Positions 1,247 through 55,244 of a stretch of DNA of 55,469 nt are shown here, one piece after another (position 1 is the first letter of the stretch; each line of letters opens with the position of its first letter). The notes under the pieces are model-generated. The model saw nothing but the letters and a program-made list of their open reading frames with translations. It ran no database searches and was not told where the DNA came from. Origin of the DNA: a virus (Duplodnaviria; Caudoviricetes). The stretch is from positions 1-55,469 of the IMG/VR virus record IMGVR_UViG_3300050121_000180; one strand, 5' to 3'. The translations under genes were made by a program, and so were the position numbers.

Positions 1247-2614
1247 TTATTTTGTGTAATCGACCCAGCCATCGGTTACAGACCAACCGCCCGCTACAGT
1301 TAATTGCAAGTTATTCTTTCCCGCTGTGCCAATTAATTGTAGTTCTACTGTAGCAGGAGACCCACCAATTGTGTACCCCGTAGCAGTAAACCTGCTTATA
1401 CCATTAGTAAATGTTGTTTCATAATGTAACAGTTTTGATACACTGCTACCTGCTGTTAGTGCGGCTGGTAGTGTCGCTCCAAAATACGTCCGATAAACAG
1501 TGCCATATATACCCCCATACTGCTCTGGAGATACCTCTTCCAAGTTAATAACACTTCTAGGCGCTAACCTAGGTAACGCTAGTACCGCCACATTAGGATG
1601 CACCCGATTGTTAGAAGCTGCGCCAGTTGCATACGGCAGGAATGTAACAGAGTCCATGTACACGTAAGCCAAACCCGTAGCAGGGCCTTCAATTGCATAT
1701 CCTAGTGACCACAACCCCGTTGCTATAGATGTACCTGAAGGAGTGCCTACCAGCGTTGCTGTAACAACCGTAGAACTTGTAAACGCTGTTATAGCCGCAT
1801 AGGCATACATACCGGCTGCACCGTTAGATGGTAAGCAAAACGTACGGCCAACGTCGGTAGATTTGAATCCTGCTCCAGTTCCGCCCGTAACGGTTACACT
1901 ACCAGTTGTTCCAGATAATGTAAGCGCTACAGCACCGAGTGGAATCTGAAAGTTTGTTTCACCAATAATAGCAACCGCACCGCTATCTAATCTGATACCA
2001 GAACTATTAACTGCGATATTAGTAACCTGACTCTGTGCAATTGCTAGTGAACCAGTAGAGGCCACGTGAATTGCTTCATCGCCATTTGCGTCAATTTCAG
2101 ACTCGCCTCCAATTGTTAGTGAGGCTCCTGCGCTAACTCGTGCAACTTGCCCTTGTGCGTTAACAGAAGTCTCCATGTCAGAGATATGTACGGCACCATT
2201 AGTTACATCAATGCAGTAGTTATCACCAGTGCTTGCTGTCTGAGCTATATGCAGCCCATCAATCTCTATGTATGACCCCGTACCAGTATTGTCCGCTAAT
2301 AATGCCGCTACTCCGGCTCCTGCGCTAGATAGCCACATATCAGATAAAAATAGTCTTTGTGGATTAGCGCCAGTGAACTGTACTGCATTATTCGCACCAC
2401 CTGAGATTGACAGTGACTTCAATGAAAAGTGATTGTTAGTTAACGCGCTTCCGCTAGCATCTGCACCGTTAAAGGTAAATTTACCAGATACAACAAGAGG
2501 AGAATGTGTGCCTGAACTGTTATTTCCAGTGATAAATAAACCACCTTGAGTCATAGCTACAGTTTCACTCATAGGGCTGTTAATTCCCGCCCATGCTGGG
2601 ATTGGGATAGGCAT
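1247..2614 (-). CDS. Beta-helix (pectin-lyase-like) tailspike- or adhesin-like protein
   Basis: 455 aa rich in G/S/T/A/N with beta-strand repeats; own promoter; visibly more GC-rich than its neighbours. Confidence 0.6.
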   Translation of the reverse strand: MPIPIPAWAGINSPMSETVAMTQGGLFITGNNSSGTHSPLVVSGKFTFNGADASGSALTNNHFSLKSLSISGGANNAVQFTGANPQRLFLSDMWLSSAGAGVAALLADNTGTGSYIEIDGLHIAQTASTGDNYCIDVTNGAVHISDMETSVNAQGQVARVSAGASLTIGGESEIDANGDEAIHVASTGSLAIAQSQVTNIAVNSSGIRLDSGAVAIIGETNFQIPLGAVALTLSGTTGSVTVTGGTGAGFKSTDVGRTFCLPSNGAAGMYAYAAITAFTSSTVVTATLVGTPSGTSIATGLWSLGYAIEGPATGLAYVYMDSVTFLPYATGAASNNRVHPNVAVLALPRLAPRSVINLEEVSPEQYGGIYGTVYRTYFGATLPAALTAGSSVSKLLHYETTFTNGISRFTATGYTIGGSPATVELQLIGTAGKNNLQLTVAGGWSVTDGWVDYTK

Positions 2615-2647
2615 AGCGTGAATCCTAATGTATTGAAATTAGAAAAA

Positions 2648-2676
2648 AGCATACGCTAAGAAAAGCTGCAAAGCAA
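2648..2676 (-). promoter_or_regulatory. sigma70-type promoter for ORF 2614
   Basis: TTGCTT-17 bp-TATGCT on the - strand. Confidence 0.6.
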
Positions 2677-2687
2677 ATGATGTTTTA

Positions 2688-3041
2688 CAAAGAAAAGCGC
2701 CCTAAACGGGGAGGGCGAATAGGGCGCTTTGATGCCTTCCGCCAGCTCTATGAACAAACGCGAAAGGACTTAATAAAACCAAGATAAGTAACCTTTAGGA
2801 GAAACTCAACTTGGAAACAGATGGGCTAATGATAGTCCCTGTTTTTATAATTGGTGCCTACGCATCGAAAGAATTTTTAACGACTAGCGTTGCGTAGGGC
2901 TTTGTTTAGTTTCCCTGTTACCAGTTAAACCACAGTAGGTTACCAATCTCCTACCATTTTAACCTTCGAAATTAAGCGAAGGTTGGGTGCGGGTCACTAA
3001 TCCCCATTACGCTCCAAGACTTTACGTCATTTGCGAAGTGA
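2688..3041 (-). ncRNA. Candidate ~350-nt structured non-coding RNA
   Basis: Only very short ORFs seen; promoter at 3048-3076; series of hairpins; ends in hairpin 2694-2730 followed by UUUUCUUU. Confidence 0.6.
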
Positions 3042-3047
3042 AATTGC

Positions 3048-3076
3048 ATATTACATTAAGATTGTTTATTGGGCAA
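3048..3076 (-). promoter_or_regulatory. sigma70-type promoter driving the candidate ncRNA
   Basis: TTGCCC-17 bp-TAATAT on the - strand. Confidence 0.65.
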
Positions 3077-3090
3077 ATATTTTATTGACC

Positions 3091-3283
3091 CTATGGAAGT
3101 TTCCTTGCATCCCTGCATCGCCCGCAAGCTTTATTGACAAGGCGGGAAAAGGTTTCTCCACAATAAAAACATTCACCCACTTCCCCCAATTGGAATCTTG
3201 CTTGCTGCATCCCTAAGGTTTTGAACGGTTGTATCCCGTTGCAAGCTTTCATTCATTTCAGCTATATCTAATTCATCAGGCAT
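3091..3283 (-). pseudogene. TraR/DksA-like C4 zinc-finger gene with a 1-nt frameshift in a G5 run
   Basis: Removing one G from the run at 3183-3187 gives MPDELDIAEMNESLQRDTTVQNLRDAASKIPIGEVGECFYCGETFSRLVNKACGRCRDARKLP (D-x-x-D-x-A N-terminus, CxxC...CxxC). Confidence 0.7.
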
Positions 3284-3316: not shown

Positions 3317-3544
3317 TTAAACTTTGCTAGTTTGTGCAAGTTCCGCAATGGTTGTGGTTGGCAGGGTTGATAGAAAGTTTAAGTACCTTAAAGACCAAAG
3401 TTTCATTCTGTCCATCATCAGTGCATCCTCAATATTTGAAAATGTCATAGGGTATAGTTTGTAATATGCAAAGCTAACTAAGTCAGTTAAATATTGTTTT
3501 TCAAACTGCAATTCTTCAATCTGAGCGTCAATTGCTTTTTTCAT
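3317..3544 (-). CDS. Hypothetical protein
   Basis: Start/stop overlap with the upstream ORF in a packed - strand operon. Confidence 0.65.
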   Translation of the reverse strand: MKKAIDAQIEELQFEKQYLTDLVSFAYYKLYPMTFSNIEDALMMDRMKLWSLRYLNFLSTLPTTTIAELAQTSKV

Positions 3545-3786
3545 ACCGTTTCCTTATCATTCTGTGGTGTGGGGAGTGCTGGTAATGGTTGCCAGTGTGT
3601 GACAAAATGCTTATATACAAATATATTCATTCCATTATCATGCCAATCCCATTCTTCTGAAAAATTAGACTTTTTTCGGTTATATATTCGTATTGGATTT
3701 ACCTTAGTTCCAACCTTACATAAAACTAACTCAAGCATATCTGGCAACCTATCATCCACACTAATCCAAGCCTGTTTACTTTTCAT
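3541..3786 (-). CDS. DUF551-like phage protein
   Basis: WISVDDRLP...VTHWQPLPALP signature. Confidence 0.8.
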   Translation of the reverse strand: MKSKQAWISVDDRLPDMLELVLCKVGTKVNPIRIYNRKKSNFSEEWDWHDNGMNIFVYKHFVTHWQPLPALPTPQNDKETV

Positions 3787-17648: not shown

Positions 17649-18152
17649 ATGTCAGACGATAAAGAAATAAAACCTGCTAAAGCCGAAAAACCAGCAAAAG
17701 AACCAAAACCTGTTATTACTAAAATTGAAGCAAACGGTATCATCCGTCCAAACGAAGGTACTGCAACGGGTAATGTTTGGGCAATTGCTGACCGCATTTC
17801 AGGTGAGAAAAAAGCTCCAGCTGAACGTGGCGAAGTTGTTAAGCAATGCGTTAGCGAAGGTATTAACGAATCAACTGCTGCAACTCAGTACGGTCGCTGG
17901 AGAAAATTCTTTGGTGTTGTAACAGTTAAGAAAATCAAATTGAGCGACGAAGAAAAAGCTGCTGAACGCGCTGCGAATAAAGCCGCAAAAGCTGCTGAAA
18001 AAGAAGCGGCTGCCAAAGTAAAAGCAGACGAAAAGGCTGCAAAAGCTGCGACTGAAGCTGCGACTAAAGCTGCTGAAAAAGCTGCTGCTGAAAAAGCTAA
18101 GGCTGAAGTTGTTGCTGCTTCTGTTGTTGCTGGCGAACCACAAACTGCATAA
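17649..18152 (+). CDS. Putative DNA-binding protein, paralog family member 4, with a histone-H1-like AKE tail
   Basis: VWAIAD...RGEVVKQCVSEGINESTAATQYGRWRK, then KAAAEKAKAE repeats. Confidence 0.8.
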   Translation: MSDDKEIKPAKAEKPAKEPKPVITKIEANGIIRPNEGTATGNVWAIADRISGEKKAPAERGEVVKQCVSEGINESTAATQYGRWRKFFGVVTVKKIKLSDEEKAAERAANKAAKAAEKEAAAKVKADEKAAKAATEAATKAAEKAAAEKAKAEVVAASVVAGEPQTA

Positions 18153-18193
18153 AAACTTAGCAATAAACCTTTCTAGCTGTTAGGTTGAAAGCG

Positions 18194-18230
18194 AAATGCC
18201 CCCTTTATCGATATTGGGGGCATTTTTATT
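18194..18230 (+). terminator. Rho-independent terminator
   Basis: AAATGCCCCC...GGGGGCATTT followed by TTATT. Confidence 0.75.
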
Positions 18231-18247
18231 TATGTTCTAACTTTCAT

Positions 18248-18276
18248 TTGCTGTAACTTGCAATCTATCCTATAAT
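18248..18276 (+). promoter_or_regulatory. sigma70 promoter of the 7-deazaguanine cluster
   Basis: TTGCTG-17-TATAAT. Confidence 0.7.
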
Positions 18277-18296
18277 TACTACTCATTAACAAAAGG

Positions 18297-19016
18297 ATGA
18301 AACCCTTGAAAAACAACCAACCCGCCGAGAAGCCTTCGCTTCTTCATTCCGGCGAACTCGAAATTAACTCTATCTTTTATACAATTCAAGGCGAAGGACC
18401 TTTTGCAGGTCGACGAGCTTTGTTTATTAGACTCGCTGGCTGCAACCTTCAATGTTCAGGTTGTGACACTGAATACTCTAATCGAACCTTTATGAATCTT
18501 GGTGTAATCCATCGTAAGTTTACGCAAGCATATAAAAACCAAAAAATAGTTCAGAACCCTTACACAGATTCAAAAATGTTAGTGGTCATCACTGGGGGCG
18601 AGCCGTTCCGCCAAAATATTGCGCCGCTTATTGAAATGTTATTGGACGAGGATTGCGATGTTCAAATTGAAACAAACGGAACATTGTACCAAGAACTCCC
18701 GTTTCATAATATTACAATTGTTTGCAGCCCAAAAACGGGCCGTATTAATGAAAAACTTTATCCGCACATTGACGCGTTCAAATACGTAATTACAGCGGGG
18801 CAAGTTGATAAGGATGGTTTACCTCTAAGCGTTCTAGGGCATCCTGTTAAAAATGCGGTTGCAAAACCACGTCCAGGTTCTAAGATTTATGTTCAAGCTG
18901 CTGACGAACAGGACATCAAGTTAAACAAAGCGAACTTGATGCAAACGATTGAAAGTGTAAAGACTTTTGAATATACTTTGTGTGTACAACTTCATAAAAT
19001 TGCGGGTTTAGATTAA
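18297..19016 (+). CDS. queE: 7-carboxy-7-deazaguanine synthase (radical SAM)
   Basis: IFYTIQGEG, FIRLAGCNLQCSGCDT (CxxxCxxC), ITGGEP, IETNGT, CSPK, QLHK. Confidence 0.95.
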   Translation: MKPLKNNQPAEKPSLLHSGELEINSIFYTIQGEGPFAGRRALFIRLAGCNLQCSGCDTEYSNRTFMNLGVIHRKFTQAYKNQKIVQNPYTDSKMLVVITGGEPFRQNIAPLIEMLLDEDCDVQIETNGTLYQELPFHNITIVCSPKTGRINEKLYPHIDAFKYVITAGQVDKDGLPLSVLGHPVKNAVAKPRPGSKIYVQAADEQDIKLNKANLMQTIESVKTFEYTLCVQLHKIAGLD

Positions 19017-19027
19017 GGGGATTTAAA

Positions 19028-19810
19028 ATGGAAGAAAGAAATAAAACTAAGGTTCTAGTTGTGGCTTCAGGCGGCCAAGACTCAACCACTTGTCTTTTTT
19101 GGGCAAAACAACGTTTCGACGAAGTCTTTGCTGTAACTTATAATTATGGTCAACGTCATGTAATTGAGATAGAAGCTGCAAAAGAAGTTGCTATTCTTGC
19201 AGGCGTTAGAAAACATTTTATCGTAAATGTTGGCCCTATTCTTGTGGGTAGCTCGCCTTTAGTAAGTTCAAACAATTTGGAGCAGTACAAAGACATGCAC
19301 TCACTGCCGGGCGGGCTAGAGAAAACGTTTGTTCCAGGCCGTAATTTGCTGTTCCTAACGTTAGCTGCAAACTTAGCTTACACGCTAGGAATAACGGATG
19401 TTGTAACGGGCGTATGTGAAGAAGATTCTGGCGGGTATCCTGATTGCCGTCAAGCATTTATTGATTCAGCACAAAAAGCAATTATTGAAGGTTTTTCGTA
19501 TAACAGCGAAGATGATTTTACAAAGTTTAAAATTCATACACCTTTGATGTATCTAACAAAAGCTCAAACTGTTGAACTCGCTGTTGAACTAGGTCAAGAC
19601 TGCTGGGACGCATTAGCCCACACTCACACCTCATATGACGGTAAATATCCGCCTACTGGAAACGACCATGCAACTTTGCTTCGCGCCAAAGGGTTCTTTG
19701 AAGCAGGTCGTCCAGACCCGTTAGTCCTTCGCGCTGTAATGGAAGGATTGATGGAATTGCCTGAAACAGATAATTATAAACCTGCTCCAGCACCTTTTCA
19801 GCTGTATTAA
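19028..19810 (+). CDS. queC: 7-cyano-7-deazaguanine synthase (variant lacking the zinc cysteines)
   Basis: SGGQDSTT, YGQRH, TFVPGRN, GYPDCR, TPLMYLTK. Confidence 0.93.
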   Translation: MEERNKTKVLVVASGGQDSTTCLFWAKQRFDEVFAVTYNYGQRHVIEIEAAKEVAILAGVRKHFIVNVGPILVGSSPLVSSNNLEQYKDMHSLPGGLEKTFVPGRNLLFLTLAANLAYTLGITDVVTGVCEEDSGGYPDCRQAFIDSAQKAIIEGFSYNSEDDFTKFKIHTPLMYLTKAQTVELAVELGQDCWDALAHTHTSYDGKYPPTGNDHATLLRAKGFFEAGRPDPLVLRAVMEGLMELPETDNYKPAPAPFQLY

Positions 19811-19815
19811 AGAAT

Positions 19816-19844
19816 TTGCTTTTTCTTATTTATATGTTTATACT
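19816..19844 (+). promoter_or_regulatory. sigma70 promoter upstream of the HNH gene
   Basis: TTGCTT-17-TATACT. Confidence 0.6.
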
Positions 19845-19877
19845 TACACGGTACAACGTGAAAAGGTAAACATATAA

Positions 19878-20405
19878 ATGGCAACTTTATTATTTCGGGA
19901 TTTAATTGATGTAGCTCCTGCTCCTATTCGTGATTATGAATTTAAAGATATACGAATTAAAAATAATTTATTTCGTATATATACGGATGGGGCAGTTTGG
20001 GATATTTCGTATTCGAGATGGCGTGAACCTGACATTGATAAGGACGGGTATAGAATCCACCATCTTGGAAGTAAAACTGTTAAATTACATAGACTAATAT
20101 TAATGGTTTATAGTCGACCACCTAGGCAAAGTGAACAAGGTAGACATCTAGATGGGGACCCTTCTAACAATGATAAGTCAAATTTAGAATGGGGAACAGG
20201 AAAACAAAATTGGATAGACAGACGTTTGCACGGCAGGGAAAGTGCTGAATGGCGAAGGCTCCTTACTAACGAGCAAGCTTTAGCAATCTATAACGATCCT
20301 CGACCTGAAAACGATATTGCAAAAGCATATGATATTTCACGAAATAGTATTATGGCAATTAAAGAAAAATTAACATATAAGGATATTCATAATGAAACCC
20401 TCTAA
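19878..20405 (+). mobile_element. Free-standing HNH homing endonuclease with C-terminal HTH
   Basis: LHRLI...RHLDGDPSNNDKSNLEWGT; inserted between queC and queD. Confidence 0.88.
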
Positions 20406-20832
20406 TAAAATAACAGCGGACAGGTATCATGACTTTTCATACGGGCATCGTGTATATCAACATGAGTCATCTTGTTCACATTTGCACGGTCACAACGGGA
20501 GAGTTCACTTTACAATTACAGCCCCAGCATTGGACACAATTGGGCGAGTTTTGGACTTTTCCGTTATCAAAAGTTTATTATGCTCGTTCTTAGAAGATGA
20601 ATGGGACCACAAATTTTTGGTTTGGGAAAAAGACCCTTGGGCTCCAATTTTAAAAGAGCTTGACCCTGAAGGAACAGTAATTGTTACTTTCAATCCAACC
20701 GCTGAACAACTCGCGCAATACCTTGTTGAAGTTGTTGGCCCGAAAAGATTAGTTGGAACCGGAGCTGTTTTAATAAGTGCAAGATTTGAAGAAACTCGCA
20801 AATGTGCCGCATCATTCATTAAAGGGGAATAA
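20392..20832 (+). CDS. queD: 6-carboxytetrahydropterin synthase
   Basis: GHR...CSHLHGHN, VLDF, WDH, NPTAE, ET. Confidence 0.93.
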   Translation: MKPSNKITADRYHDFSYGHRVYQHESSCSHLHGHNGRVHFTITAPALDTIGRVLDFSVIKSLLCSFLEDEWDHKFLVWEKDPWAPILKELDPEGTVIVTFNPTAEQLAQYLVEVVGPKRLVGTGAVLISARFEETRKCAASFIKGE

Positions 20833-20833
20833 A

Positions 20834-21766
20834 GTGAGCAATAAGTTACATCTAACAAATTTCAATATTAATCAATTGGCAGTATTGCTCAACGAACATA
20901 TTTTATCTTTACACTTGAGCCAGCCTGGTAAATTTGGGCTTAACATTTATGCAGTTCCACGCGGGGGAATTCCGGCAGCCTACGCGCTAAAAGCAGTTAA
21001 CCAAGATTATTATCATATTGTGGACGACCCTAAACAAGCGGATATTGCAGTTGACGATATTATTGATAGTGGTGAAACTGCGAAACGCATGATGTCCGAG
21101 CACTTACTTCCAACTTATGCACTGATTGATAAGGCTGGGGTTAGCGGAGCTGTATTTACATTGGGCGATATTACAAAATGGATTGTTTGGCCATGGGAAA
21201 CGTCTAACGAACAAACAGAAGGCGTTGAAGCAAACGTTACTCGCATCCTTCAGTATATTGGGGAAGATGCTGGGCGCGAAGGTTTGTTGGAAACGCCAAG
21301 ACGTTTTAACAAAGCTCTAGGGCAATGGTTTAGCGGTTATGGTAAAGACCCAAAAGACATTTTAAAAGTGTTTGAGGATGGGGCTGAAAGCTATGACCAA
21401 ATGGTTATTGTTAAAGATATCCCAATTTACTCAAAATGCGAACATCATATTGCTGATATCTTCGGTACTGCTACAATCGCCTACATTCCGAACGGTAAAA
21501 TAGTTGGCCTTAGTAAGTTGTCACGTCTTGCGGATATTTTTGCTAGACGTTTACAAGTGCAAGAGCGTTTAACCCAGCAAATCGCGGATGCCCTTGAAGA
21601 ACATTTAGCGCCTAAAGGCGTAGGTGTTTTGATTAAAGCTAGGCACATGTGCATGGAATCACGTGGTCTATGCCAACAAGGACATTATACTATTACATGC
21701 GCTTTGCACGGAGTTTTGAAAAATGATGTTGCAGCTCGTGCTGAGTTTATGGCTTTGGCAAAATAA
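20834..21766 (+). CDS. folE: Phosphoribosyltransferase - GTP cyclohydrolase I fusion
   Basis: GTG start after queD; PRTase motifs VPRGG, VDDIIDSGET, WIVWPWE; FolE motifs REGLLETPRR, SKCEHH, GLSKLSR, LQVQERLT, HMCMESRG. Confidence 0.92.
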   Translation: MSNKLHLTNFNINQLAVLLNEHILSLHLSQPGKFGLNIYAVPRGGIPAAYALKAVNQDYYHIVDDPKQADIAVDDIIDSGETAKRMMSEHLLPTYALIDKAGVSGAVFTLGDITKWIVWPWETSNEQTEGVEANVTRILQYIGEDAGREGLLETPRRFNKALGQWFSGYGKDPKDILKVFEDGAESYDQMVIVKDIPIYSKCEHHIADIFGTATIAYIPNGKIVGLSKLSRLADIFARRLQVQERLTQQIADALEEHLAPKGVGVLIKARHMCMESRGLCQQGHYTITCALHGVLKNDVAARAEFMALAK

Positions 21767-21767
21767 G

Positions 21768-22325
21768 ATGAAATTTTGCAAGGTTTGTAATAAAGACTTA
21801 CCTTCAAGTTTATTCAAAATTAAAGGTAAGGTTGGAACTTGCATTCCTTGCATGAAACTTCGAAAATCGAATTATTACTTTGATAATAAAGAAGAGATTT
21901 CAAAGAAGCAATCTGAATACCAAAAGAACAGTTTGAAAGTGAAAGCATATCAGGCTGCTTATTTTCAGAAAAATAAAGAGGTAAATGCTAGGGCAACTAA
22001 GAAATGGAGAGATAATCATCCTTTACAGCATCAACAAATTACAAAACAAGATTATTTAAAAAGAAAGAATTCTTGGCCGGATTATGTTGCAACAAGACGA
22101 GCGAAATTACTTCAAGCAATTCCAAAATGGGCGAACAAAGAGAAAGTAAAATCCATATACTTAAAAGCGGCACAATTAACGCTTGAAACCGGAATCCAAC
22201 ATCATGTTGACCACATAGTACCTCTAAATTCAAAGTTAGTTTGTGGGCTACATTGGGAAGGTAACTTAGAACCTTTGCCCGCTTTAGAGAATATGTTAAA
22301 GGGTAATAGATATGAAACTGAGTAA
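21768..22325 (+). mobile_element. Free-standing HNH endonuclease with N-terminal zinc finger
   Basis: MKFCKVC...C..C; HHVDHIVPL...VCGLHWEGNL...N..K.N. Confidence 0.88.
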
Positions 22326-22340
22326 CAAGAGAGCGCAACG

Positions 22341-23273
22341 ATGAATCTTTTTGTCGCTGCTGTTTACAGAAACGGATACCGAGCGGGGGGCGAAGAAAAA
22401 GGCCGCTATGCAAAGTTAACTGACCACGAAAAAGAATGTGTTAATGCAAGTAAGAATCTGCTGGAGTCGTTTCACTATGTTGAAGGGCAAATGTATGTTG
22501 ACGCAATGCGTTTGGATGGGGCGAAGGTCTTTCTTGACTCGGGGGCTTTCTCCGCATTCACATTAGGCGCAACAATCGACCTTCCCCATTATTGTGACTA
22601 CATTAAAAAGAACGAGGATATCATTCGGAAAGAAGATGGAGTTGTCATGGCATCTGTTTTGGATGGTATTGGCGACCCGTTAAAGACTTATCAAAATCAG
22701 CTTGCAATGGAAGAACTAGGTGCGAAACCTTTGCCCTGCTTTCACTATGGTGAAGACGAGCGTTATTTGGAATGGTATGTTAAGAATTATGACTATATTA
22801 CATTAGGCGGGATGGTTGGACGAAGTGCTGTAGTTTTGATGCAGTGGCTTGACCGTATTTGGGAAAAGTATCTAACAGACGGAACTGGCAAACCCCGTTT
22901 AAAAGTTCACGCTTTTGGTATTACTGCAATAAGAATTATGGAGCGATATCCATGGTTTTCGGTTGACTCTAGCTCGTGGATTCAGACCGCAGCGTTTGGT
23001 TCAATTGTAACTCCAAAACACGGAACAATTAGTGTATCATCCCAATCACCTGCTCGCCATGTAGCTGGTCAACATGCTACAACATTGAGCCCTATTGAAC
23101 AAGATTGTGTTTTCAAAATGTTGGAGGATGCAGGCTTTACATATGAGCGTTTGTCCACAGTATATGAAAGTCGAGCAGCGTTTAATATTCACAGTTACGG
23201 GTTGATTGCTGCAATGATTAACGCAAATAAAAATCTAACTTTTAAAGCGCATGTGCAAGAATTATTTGATTAG
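22341..23273 (+). CDS. dpdA: DNA 7-deazaguanine transglycosylase (TGT-like)
   Basis: FLDSGAFS, LDGIGD, PCFHYGE, LGGMVG, VHAFG, SVDSSSW; lies within the preQ0 cluster. Confidence 0.85.
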   Translation: MNLFVAAVYRNGYRAGGEEKGRYAKLTDHEKECVNASKNLLESFHYVEGQMYVDAMRLDGAKVFLDSGAFSAFTLGATIDLPHYCDYIKKNEDIIRKEDGVVMASVLDGIGDPLKTYQNQLAMEELGAKPLPCFHYGEDERYLEWYVKNYDYITLGGMVGRSAVVLMQWLDRIWEKYLTDGTGKPRLKVHAFGITAIRIMERYPWFSVDSSSWIQTAAFGSIVTPKHGTISVSSQSPARHVAGQHATTLSPIEQDCVFKMLEDAGFTYERLSTVYESRAAFNIHSYGLIAAMINANKNLTFKAHVQELFD

Positions 23274-54070: not shown

Positions 54071-54769
54071 TTATTTAATCCTCAATTGGTCTTTGTTTAC
54101 AATTTGACCGTTTAAATTAATTCGATTTCCAAATTCTTTGCCTGCTTTGTAATGTTCCATATTAACAGTCTGTGCTTTAGCTTTAGAACTTGTTAAACTT
54201 GTTCCAGAACTTTTAATAAACATTTCGTTAGCATCCAATTCAGTTTTATAAATGTTGTGTAATACTACCGCATTTTCTGCTGAAATACCGTCTATTTTAG
54301 ATTCTTCCAGCATTTCCTTGACGCGCTCGCTAAGTCTATCCGCTGCTCCGATACTAAATGAGCGGGATTGAGGTGCTAAGTTATGCGCCCAATTTTTACG
54401 GCATTCTTTAAGAATGGAATTAATAACGTATGTGGAAATCAGAGTTGCGGTAATAACGTTGGATTGTTTGCCCACAAAATAATGTTTACCTTTAGTTGCG
54501 TTTAACTTTTCGCTTGAATAATATTTACAGAAGAATAGTTTTGCAATTGAGTTGCAAGTTTGTTTACACCAAACCATGTGAAATGTTTCGATAATATGTT
54601 TTTCACGATTTTCCATTGCTTCGTGATGTTGAGCGTCCTGCATTGTAAGGTTATGCCTTGCTAGAAACCCGTGAGCCATACGAAGCGCGTTATCGCGTTC
54701 CCCTTCAGTGGCTGCCGCGTTGTTTGCAAGTGCAAGAAGCTTTTTAACTTTGTCTAGAATCTTTTCCAT
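54071..54769 (-). CDS. DUF2786-domain protein
   Basis: ILDKVKKLLALA....TEGE...A...A...L.RHNL N-terminus. Confidence 0.85.
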   Translation of the reverse strand: MEKILDKVKKLLALANNAAATEGERDNALRMAHGFLARHNLTMQDAQHHEAMENREKHIIETFHMVWCKQTCNSIAKLFFCKYYSSEKLNATKGKHYFVGKQSNVITATLISTYVINSILKECRKNWAHNLAPQSRSFSIGAADRLSERVKEMLEESKIDGISAENAVVLHNIYKTELDANEMFIKSSGTSLTSSKAKAQTVNMEHYKAGKEFGNRINLNGQIVNKDQLRIK

Positions 54770-54796
54770 TTTATTTCTCCGTTTTGTTAATGCGTT

Positions 54797-54956
54797 GTCG
54801 ATGTATGTATATTCAATCTATTCGTTCTGTTAGTCAACAACTATTTTAAAATAAAGTGAAAATAAATCTACATATATAAGGAATAAAAATAAATACAAAA
54901 TAGTCGAAATAGTTGTTGACGAGTTAATCAAATAGATTTAATATAACTATATCGCA
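54797..54956. promoter_or_regulatory. Divergent pair of early-type promoters (TACATCG family)
   Basis: - strand TTGACT(54837)-17-GAATAT..TACATCG; + strand TTGACG(54916)-17-TAATAT..TATATCG; both have AATAGATT in the spacer. Confidence 0.8.
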
Positions 54957-54983
54957 GCACATTACTTAACTAGGAGATTTAAA

Positions 54984-55244
54984 ATGCTAACAGTTCAACA
55001 AATTACCGATTATACTGAAATTCAAATTAAACAATTAAGTTTAAAAAATCGTATTGATTTACAAGATGATTTAACACGTGATAATAACCATACCGCAGTC
55101 ATTCTAATTGACGCTGTAGTTCAATCAAACCAAACCGTAATTGATTTGATTTGCGCTATCTATACATTACAAACTGAACTTGGTTATTTGCCAATAGAAC
55201 TTGCAACGTGCCGTAATTTTTTATCAACATTATTAACTAAATAA
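54984..55244 (+). CDS. Hypothetical early protein
   Basis: AGGAG RBS after the early promoter. Confidence 0.75.
   Translation: MLTVQQITDYTEIQIKQLSLKNRIDLQDDLTRDNNHTAVILIDAVVQSNQTVIDLICAIYTLQTELGYLPIELATCRNFLSTLLTK

Follow-up and report, generated by a model that had tools for sequence, protein, structure and literature searches.

What does a phage whose genes are otherwise tightly packed keep in 476 nt without a gene? The question is raised by positions 3090-2615, on the minus strand, of an uncultured phage known from peat metagenomes. This stretch is the largest gap of the genome, bordered by an early gene ending at 3091 and by a 455-aa ORF starting at 2614, both on the minus strand. The window, meaning the whole stretch of DNA that was analysed, is the viral record itself, complete at 55,469 bp, with 127 bp repeated at both ends, a signature of circular assembly. 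A PHROG scan of 65 ORFs revealed the gene set of a contractile-tailed phage (myovirus), including sheath, baseplate, portal, large terminase and major head protein, together with a replication block of primase, DNA polymerase, helicase and Cas4-like nuclease. The phage is without a close cultured relative: a search of 50,697 phage records gave no primase closer than 47.5% identity, and the best IMG/VR matches of the large terminase, at 5 loci, are 50-64% identical. An earlier note on this DNA had proposed a standalone non-coding RNA of about 350 nt with its own promoter and terminator. We favour, tentatively and at slightly less than even confidence, the view that the leftward early operon ends here in a 3' tail that is structured and untranslated, and which would terminate early transcription and possibly yield a 3'-derived small RNA like DicF.

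The stretch is non-coding. Its longest start-to-stop ORF measures 36 aa and its longest stop-to-stop frame 52 aa, and each of the six frames is closed by 9-12 stops per 158 codons, which bears out the earlier claim of about 350 nt holding very short ORFs only. Neither the stop-to-stop pieces nor the read-through frames gave a remnant of a protein family above the Pfam or PHROG cut-off. The best match of the read-through frames to PHROGs had an E of 0.22, and Pfam returned NinD only, at 17.3 bits under a cut-off of 35. A decayed gene was considered as well and rejected, tblastx and blastn against all loci collected for comparison giving nothing below E 0.03 except loci with chance 20-mers. The longer apparent gap of 574 nt at 21767-22340 is actually coding, being occupied by a 200-aa ORF (21723-22325, plus strand) of endonuclease VII/HNH-like type (phrog_26577, E 4.9e-23; phrog_1035, E 3.3e-15).

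Read 5' to 3' on the minus strand, the MFE fold consists of a poorly structured segment, seven local hairpins (z -1.8 to -4.4) and a terminator, with A/U-rich single-stranded linkers separating the hairpins; z-scores of single hairpins are optimistic, since the segments were picked after folding. The consecutive stems listed in the earlier note are all present at their places. The 57 nt at the 5' end (2985-3041) are unstructured (z +0.77 against 200 shuffles). H1 is an 8-bp stem, AACCTTCG/CGAAGGTT (2984-2977/2968-2961), with a loop of 8 (z -4.36). H2 (2932-2957; z -1.95), GGTAGG/CCTACT with two G-U pairs and the core GTAGG/CCTAC at 2954-2950/2939-2935, is missing from the centroid structure; H3 follows at 2908-2931 (z -3.69). 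The long interrupted stem of H4 (2852-2900; z -3.45) contains CCTACGCA/TGCGTAGG (2898-2891/2864-2857) and then continues into C-ACCA (2856-2852), of which the ACCA is single-stranded and resembles a tRNA acceptor end. In H5 (2844-2815; z -1.79), AAACAG..CTGTTT lies around GGG(A)CTA/TAGCCC. H6 (2779-2814; z -2.88) pairs CCAAG with CTTGG (2814-2810/2783-2779), and H7 (2734-2769; z -3.27) pairs CCTTTCG with CGGAAGG (2767-2761/2741-2735, one G-U pair). Finally, the claimed 11-bp terminal stem with its UUUUCUUU tail was found at 2730-2688 (stem 2730-2720/2704-2694). Its letters are those of a genuine intrinsic (Rho-independent) terminator, predicted to act on the minus strand, and the scan lists it among the genome's best (-20.3 kcal/mol, z -6.72).

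Considered as a whole, folding is moderately above chance. The 354 nt of the minus strand reach an MFE of -107.9 kcal/mol compared with -88.4 +/- 5.6 for shuffles (z -3.46), and 0 of 100 shuffles folded as well. When energies are corrected for GC, the minus strand ranks 4th among 312 equal-length windows of the genome (-2.07 SD) and the plus strand, which folds equally well against shuffles (z -3.58), ranks 12th (-1.74 SD). Three perfect stems of at least 8 bp were found in 3 of 274 genome windows, the stretch itself being one, and in 5 of 1000 dinucleotide shuffles; at a minimum of 7 bp the stem count is ordinary (27 of 274 windows, 45 of 500 shuffles).

The transcription of this structure is where our reading departs from the earlier one. 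We scanned the genome for sigma-70-type hexamers matching the consensus, which may differ from that used by the host, at 9 or more of 12 positions with a spacing of 16-18 nt. The hexamers claimed as the promoter of the stretch, TTGCCC-17-TAATAT (3048-3076, minus strand), are present as letters with a weak match of 8/12, and those claimed as a promoter belonging to the 455-aa gene itself, TTGCTT-17-TATGCT (2648-2676, minus strand), match the consensus at 7/12. Neither reaches the threshold of the scan, and promoter-like sites that do reach it occur genome-wide at chance frequency (counts of 45, 59 and 41, where 51.2, 53.3 and 37.7 were expected), so the site at 3076-3048 is weaker than sites of chance level. 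Terminator-like sites are not above shuffles either (20 against 19.6, 13 against 17.5 and 18 against 15.0). As signals of both kinds are matched at chance frequency, such matches carry little weight. The claim that the unit stands alone is not supported here, given the weak promoter match and the fact that no terminator separates the stretch from the early operon upstream.

That operon is a chain of minus-strand genes from about 8516 to 3091, comprising the primase gene, about 3 kb upstream of the gene-free stretch, a RusA-like gene, small ORFs and, as the last early gene, a DksA/TraR-like zinc-finger gene (3091-3283). The stretch lies directly behind this chain on the same strand, and the scan found no minus-strand terminator-like site between 3967 and 2717. 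In the absence of a terminator after the last early gene, early transcripts should run into the stretch. Polymerase starting from early promoters near 8.6 kb would find no terminator before 2730-2688, and the stretch would be carried along in the early RNA even if the weak internal promoter were silent. Transcription of the early genes would then stop at the strong terminator, which would insulate an accessory virion-type gene that lies in a hypervariable segment, while the hairpins upstream of the terminator would block 3'-to-5' decay and could be cut out as a stable, DicF-like small RNA derived from the 3' end. We infer this transcription from upstream, the stability and processing of the RNA, and any trans-acting role. 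The 8 sequencing runs listed for the phage include no RNA run, which speaks neither for nor against these inferences. The non-coding character of all six frames, the fold that ranks 4th of 312 windows and the rank of the terminator are consistent with such a tail. The equal folding of the plus strand argues in the other direction: the inverted repeats need not act in a minus-strand RNA.

The DksA/TraR-like gene is split by a +1 frameshift at a G5 run (3187-3183) into two overlapping ORFs, 3283-3173 (36 aa) and 3252-3091 (53 aa), neither of which has a PHROG or Pfam match. A single four-base step at GGGG restores 63 aa that match phrog_54, 'DksA-like zinc-finger protein' (E 3.3e-6), over nearly the full length of the profile (residues 1-58 against 1-62 of 75). 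Contigs from two runs, X2 and X3, are identical at this position, which indicates that the frameshift is real or at least reproducible. The gene could be a pseudogene or could be read by programmed slippage.

On the other side, the 455-aa ORF (1247-2614, minus strand) is unassigned to a family, having no PHROG, Pfam or PDB sequence match, and is a candidate for an accessory virion (late) gene. Its one relative in viral contigs, at 53% identity, is encoded downstream of a gene for a major head protein (phrog_247, E 2.8e-75), so that a virion-type accessory product is probable; that contig is without a comparable non-coding stretch before the gene. A search of genome contigs returned one remote match of 23% identity, and the AF2 model, all-beta, is of low confidence (pLDDT 42, alignment of 2 sequences), too uncertain to build on.

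The nearest complete relative (G001) shares, in translated comparison, the primase, the RusA-like gene, both terminase subunits and the DUF2786/phrog_421 gene. Between about 4990 and 54770, passing through the origin of the window, the two genomes differ throughout. The stretch thus sits in a variable accessory segment at the junction of early and late genes, a place that suits the tail of an early operon. The corresponding gap of G001 holds small ORFs and shows no excess of structure (z -0.30), which speaks against the structured tail. Alignable homologues were found nowhere among phage records, IMG/VR records, and viral and metagenome contigs. More specifically, blastn of the stretch against the 50,697 phage records gave no match, and a DNA search of 5 related IMG/VR records gave only chance matches of 17-21 nt. 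Searches of viral and metagenome contigs anchored on the primase, or on the 127-aa neighbour, returned 0 relatives, and anchoring on the 75-aa neighbour returned one contig that stops short of the region and one mosaic phage without it. An exact-pattern scan of viral contigs for the CCA hairpin had 0 matches, and a 20-mer from the conserved 3' part found 4 chance matches in metagenome contigs, alignable over 20-25 nt only.

The single relative that covers part of the stretch (X5) is known from assembled contigs of one freshwater-sediment run, in which H3-H4 are not covered. One contig (record 22, depth 8) aligns over 2595-2830 (236 nt) at about 97% identity, with 7 substitutions and one insertion. 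Among the four of these seven substitutions that are listed, 2698 C>T and 2726 G>A fall on the partners of one terminator pair. This compensatory change from C:G to T:A, one event in one contig, lends weak support to the terminator stem. The change at 2743 is unpaired, the one at 2748 breaks one pair in a weak inner helix of H7, and the 1-nt insertion lies inside the H6 stem, behind 2807. A second contig (depth 2), covering 2946-3099 at about 86% identity, carries five indels, three of them in H1 (two 1-nt insertions and a 2-nt deletion). Conservation in X5 therefore supports the terminator and none of the other hairpins, and the indels in H1 and H6 count against a structured tail in which the hairpins matter. 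Nearby coding pieces of X5 are 81% to 98.7% identical, most of them 87-96%, a comparison in which the 97% of the 3' part looks favourable to a function as operon end. However, one of these coding pieces reaches 98.7%, and the match to the contig breaks off suddenly at 2595; recent recombination, rather than selection, could explain why the 3' part is so similar. As a separate observation, X5 keeps the six initial codons of the 455-aa gene and its proposed promoter region. Its contigs then have 135-226 unlike letters in the interval 2524-2595, a sign that the N-terminal part of the protein may have been exchanged or extended in this relative.

The same data bear on the strongest competing explanation, a neutral spacer or recombination scar in a mosaic accessory segment, where the terminator alone would be functional and the hairpins would have no role. 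We consider this possible, and unlikely rather than improbable. It would account well for the lack of a homologue in the phage database, the 5 related IMG/VR records and the metagenome contigs, for a segment that differs from G001 all the way from about 4990 through the origin to 54770, and for the neighbouring genes, whose similarity to other phages is confined to mosaic patches of 60 nt. The frameshifted DksA-like gene next to the stretch and the X5 indels in the 5' hairpins fit it too, and the folding, at about -2 SD against genome windows with both strands equal and an ordinary number of stems of at least 7 bp, is not extreme. Against a mere spacer stand the z of -3.46 against shuffles and the three perfect stems of at least 8 bp, a combination that just 5 of 1000 shuffles reach and that only 2 further windows of the 274 share. 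In addition, this is the longest gap of a tightly packed genome, and the searches for a decayed gene in it came back empty. With respect to the mosaic patches, two of 60-64 nt (94-95% identity) join the window at 3352-3415 and 3541-3600 to positions 1702-1764 and 573-632 of an otherwise unrelated 36-kb viral contig (L017); they lie at gene ends and look like mosaic joints of the lambdoid type.

The standalone small RNA gene of the earlier note, in which a promoter at 3076-3048 would drive an RNA of about 350 nt acting in trans as a sponge, a decoy or a set of base-pairing sRNAs, is in our estimate improbable. Its attraction lies in the layout: two hexamers at 17-nt spacing just past the stop codon of the upstream gene, a U-tailed terminator about 350 nt downstream, and between them hairpins set apart by A/U-rich single-stranded linkers, with H4 ending in ACCA. 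The promoter, however, is an 8/12 match in a genome where better matches occur at the rate of chance, the first 57 nt of the supposed RNA are unstructured (z +0.77), and the 5' part is rich in indels in X5. The lone ACCA among eight hairpins was moreover noticed after the fact. Known families and repeats give this reading no help either. In a search of Rfam 15 (1201 nt searched), no family reached its gathering score; there were 9 matches at E<=10, the best with E 0.65 and 19.1 bits where the gathering score is 50, and the two best are confined to the terminator hairpin. The models for DicF (RF00039), STnc100 (RF02076), tRNA, tmRNA, c4 and GOLLD/ROOL all stayed below their gathering scores in the same release, and tRNA gave no match even at E<=10. 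ARAGORN called 0 tRNA or tmRNA genes in the whole window, and 0 in 2501-3200 with thresholds lowered to 80%. No repeated unit was found within the stretch, which has only three direct repeats of 8-9 nt in two copies, and a second copy in the genome was not found either, the best internal match being 13 nt (E 0.32).

A bolder reading would make the stretch a multi-hairpin RNA, standalone or processed, of a new family, in which the CCA-ended H4 (2900-2852) mimics the 3' end of a tRNA and is offered, as a decoy or a substrate, to a tRNA-directed enzyme of the host or to a defence system, with the other hairpins as separately released modules. We regard this as very unlikely. H4 shares with phage tRNAs and tRNA-like RNAs a long stem and a single-stranded ACCA, but it lacks the cloverleaf and the T-loop.

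Similarly little credence can be given to a late-gene leader. In phage lambda, transcription from the late promoter PR' gives the 6S RNA of about 194 nt, which ends at the terminator tR' unless Q antitermination intervenes; here a terminated short RNA would likewise give way to read-through into the downstream genes when a phage antiterminator permits it. The likeness is that a short terminated non-coding transcript would lie between nin-type genes and the late or virion genes: a promoter-like site, a leader of about 350 nt, a strong terminator and a virion-type gene follow each other in order on one strand, preceded, as is the case in lambdoid phages, by a RusA-like gene with small nin-like ORFs, and the upstream gene is of an RNA-polymerase-binding type (DksA/TraR-like). 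In contrast to the lambda leader, the stretch has no Q-like gene that we could find, a weak promoter, about twice the length, seven hairpins and two genes downstream. Scans of 65, 16 and 24 ORFs detected no Q-, N- or other antiterminator family, and the DksA-like gene carries a frameshift. Downstream of the stretch the strand changes after only two genes, and the main late operon begins at another place, near 54769.

Still less can be said for one or more small peptide genes, possibly a pair similar to type I toxin-antitoxin systems in which, for example, a plus-strand ORF at 2811-2897 would be faced by an antisense RNA from the minus strand. This ORF encodes a hydrophobic peptide of 28 aa, starts with TTG, has AGGAG 9 nt upstream and lies antisense to H4-H5; the plus strand also has a hairpin at 2857-2898 with a T-rich run behind it, as well as terminator-like sites at 2823-2838 and 2851-2868. 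The start codon is nevertheless TTG, there is no family match, the hydrophobic run extends over only about 15 residues, and X5 has an insertion between AGGAG and the start codon. Equally remote is a site acting at the DNA level through inverted repeats (replication origin, packaging site or cluster of operators), for which the equal folding of both strands and the primase gene about 3 kb upstream could be cited, but which has no iterons and only the three two-copy repeats of 8-9 nt, stands apart from both the cumulative GC-skew minimum at 7-8 kb and the terminase genes at 49.6-51.6 kb, and has stem spacers of 8-26 nt that are unlike those of operators.

The structured tail of the early operon can also be compared with described systems. 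The stretch lies outside every described family, and its kind, a folded non-coding cassette with a terminator in a phage early operon, is already known. In the part of PMC12197685 that deals with it, citing Faubladier 1990, DicF is released from the dicBF operon by termination and processing of the transcript. As far as that part describes it, the DicF cassette of the Qin prophage is like our stretch in comprising a few hundred folded non-coding nucleotides in an early operon, a terminator and an accessory gene next to it. The two differ in that there is no match of sequence or structure (no Rfam match to DicF or STnc100 at E<=10) and in that the peat phage lineage and its host are unrelated. 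The promoter-terminator stem-loop cassettes (PeSL) of T4-type phages, in the sections of PMC2839356 and PMC4122927 that present them, likewise are non-coding regulatory sequences that border variable accessory genes and take part in module exchange. The X5 relative offers a parallel, retaining 2595-2830 at about 97% identity and then changing sequence sharply at 2595. As presented there, PeSLs are short motifs in many copies per genome, whereas the stretch has 476 nt in a single copy and does not show the repetition that defines a PeSL.

If the chain of hairpins is a stable RNA, the known RNA elements would come to include one from a peat phage, of an environmental lineage without a cultured relative. 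To our knowledge, phage small RNAs known so far come almost all from enterobacterial prophages. At present the stretch serves chiefly as a boundary mark, with early transcription on one side and an exchangeable cassette of virion genes on the other, which is helpful for operon annotation and unsurprising.

Other features of the genome came to light during this work. The lowest GC-corrected folding energy on the minus strand belongs to 54726-55079 (-2.69 SD; third lowest on the plus strand, -2.3 SD), a very AT-rich divergent intergenic region (GC 0.257) between the DUF2786 gene (minus strand) and an 86-aa ORF (plus strand). The strongest folding outlier of the plus strand, 19680-20033 (-3.59 SD), lies at the junction of a QueC-like gene and an HNH endonuclease gene. 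A 7-deazaguanine gene set occupies 17649-23273 on the plus strand, with QueE-like, QueC-like and GTP cyclohydrolase genes and a queuine tRNA-ribosyltransferase homologue (TGT/DpdA-like). These synthesis and insertion genes suggest that the peat phage has modified DNA. The 200-aa endonuclease VII/HNH-like ORF in the apparent gap mentioned above overlaps the end of the GTP cyclohydrolase gene and has the queuine tRNA-ribosyltransferase homologue on its other side; it is possibly a homing-endonuclease insertion within this set.
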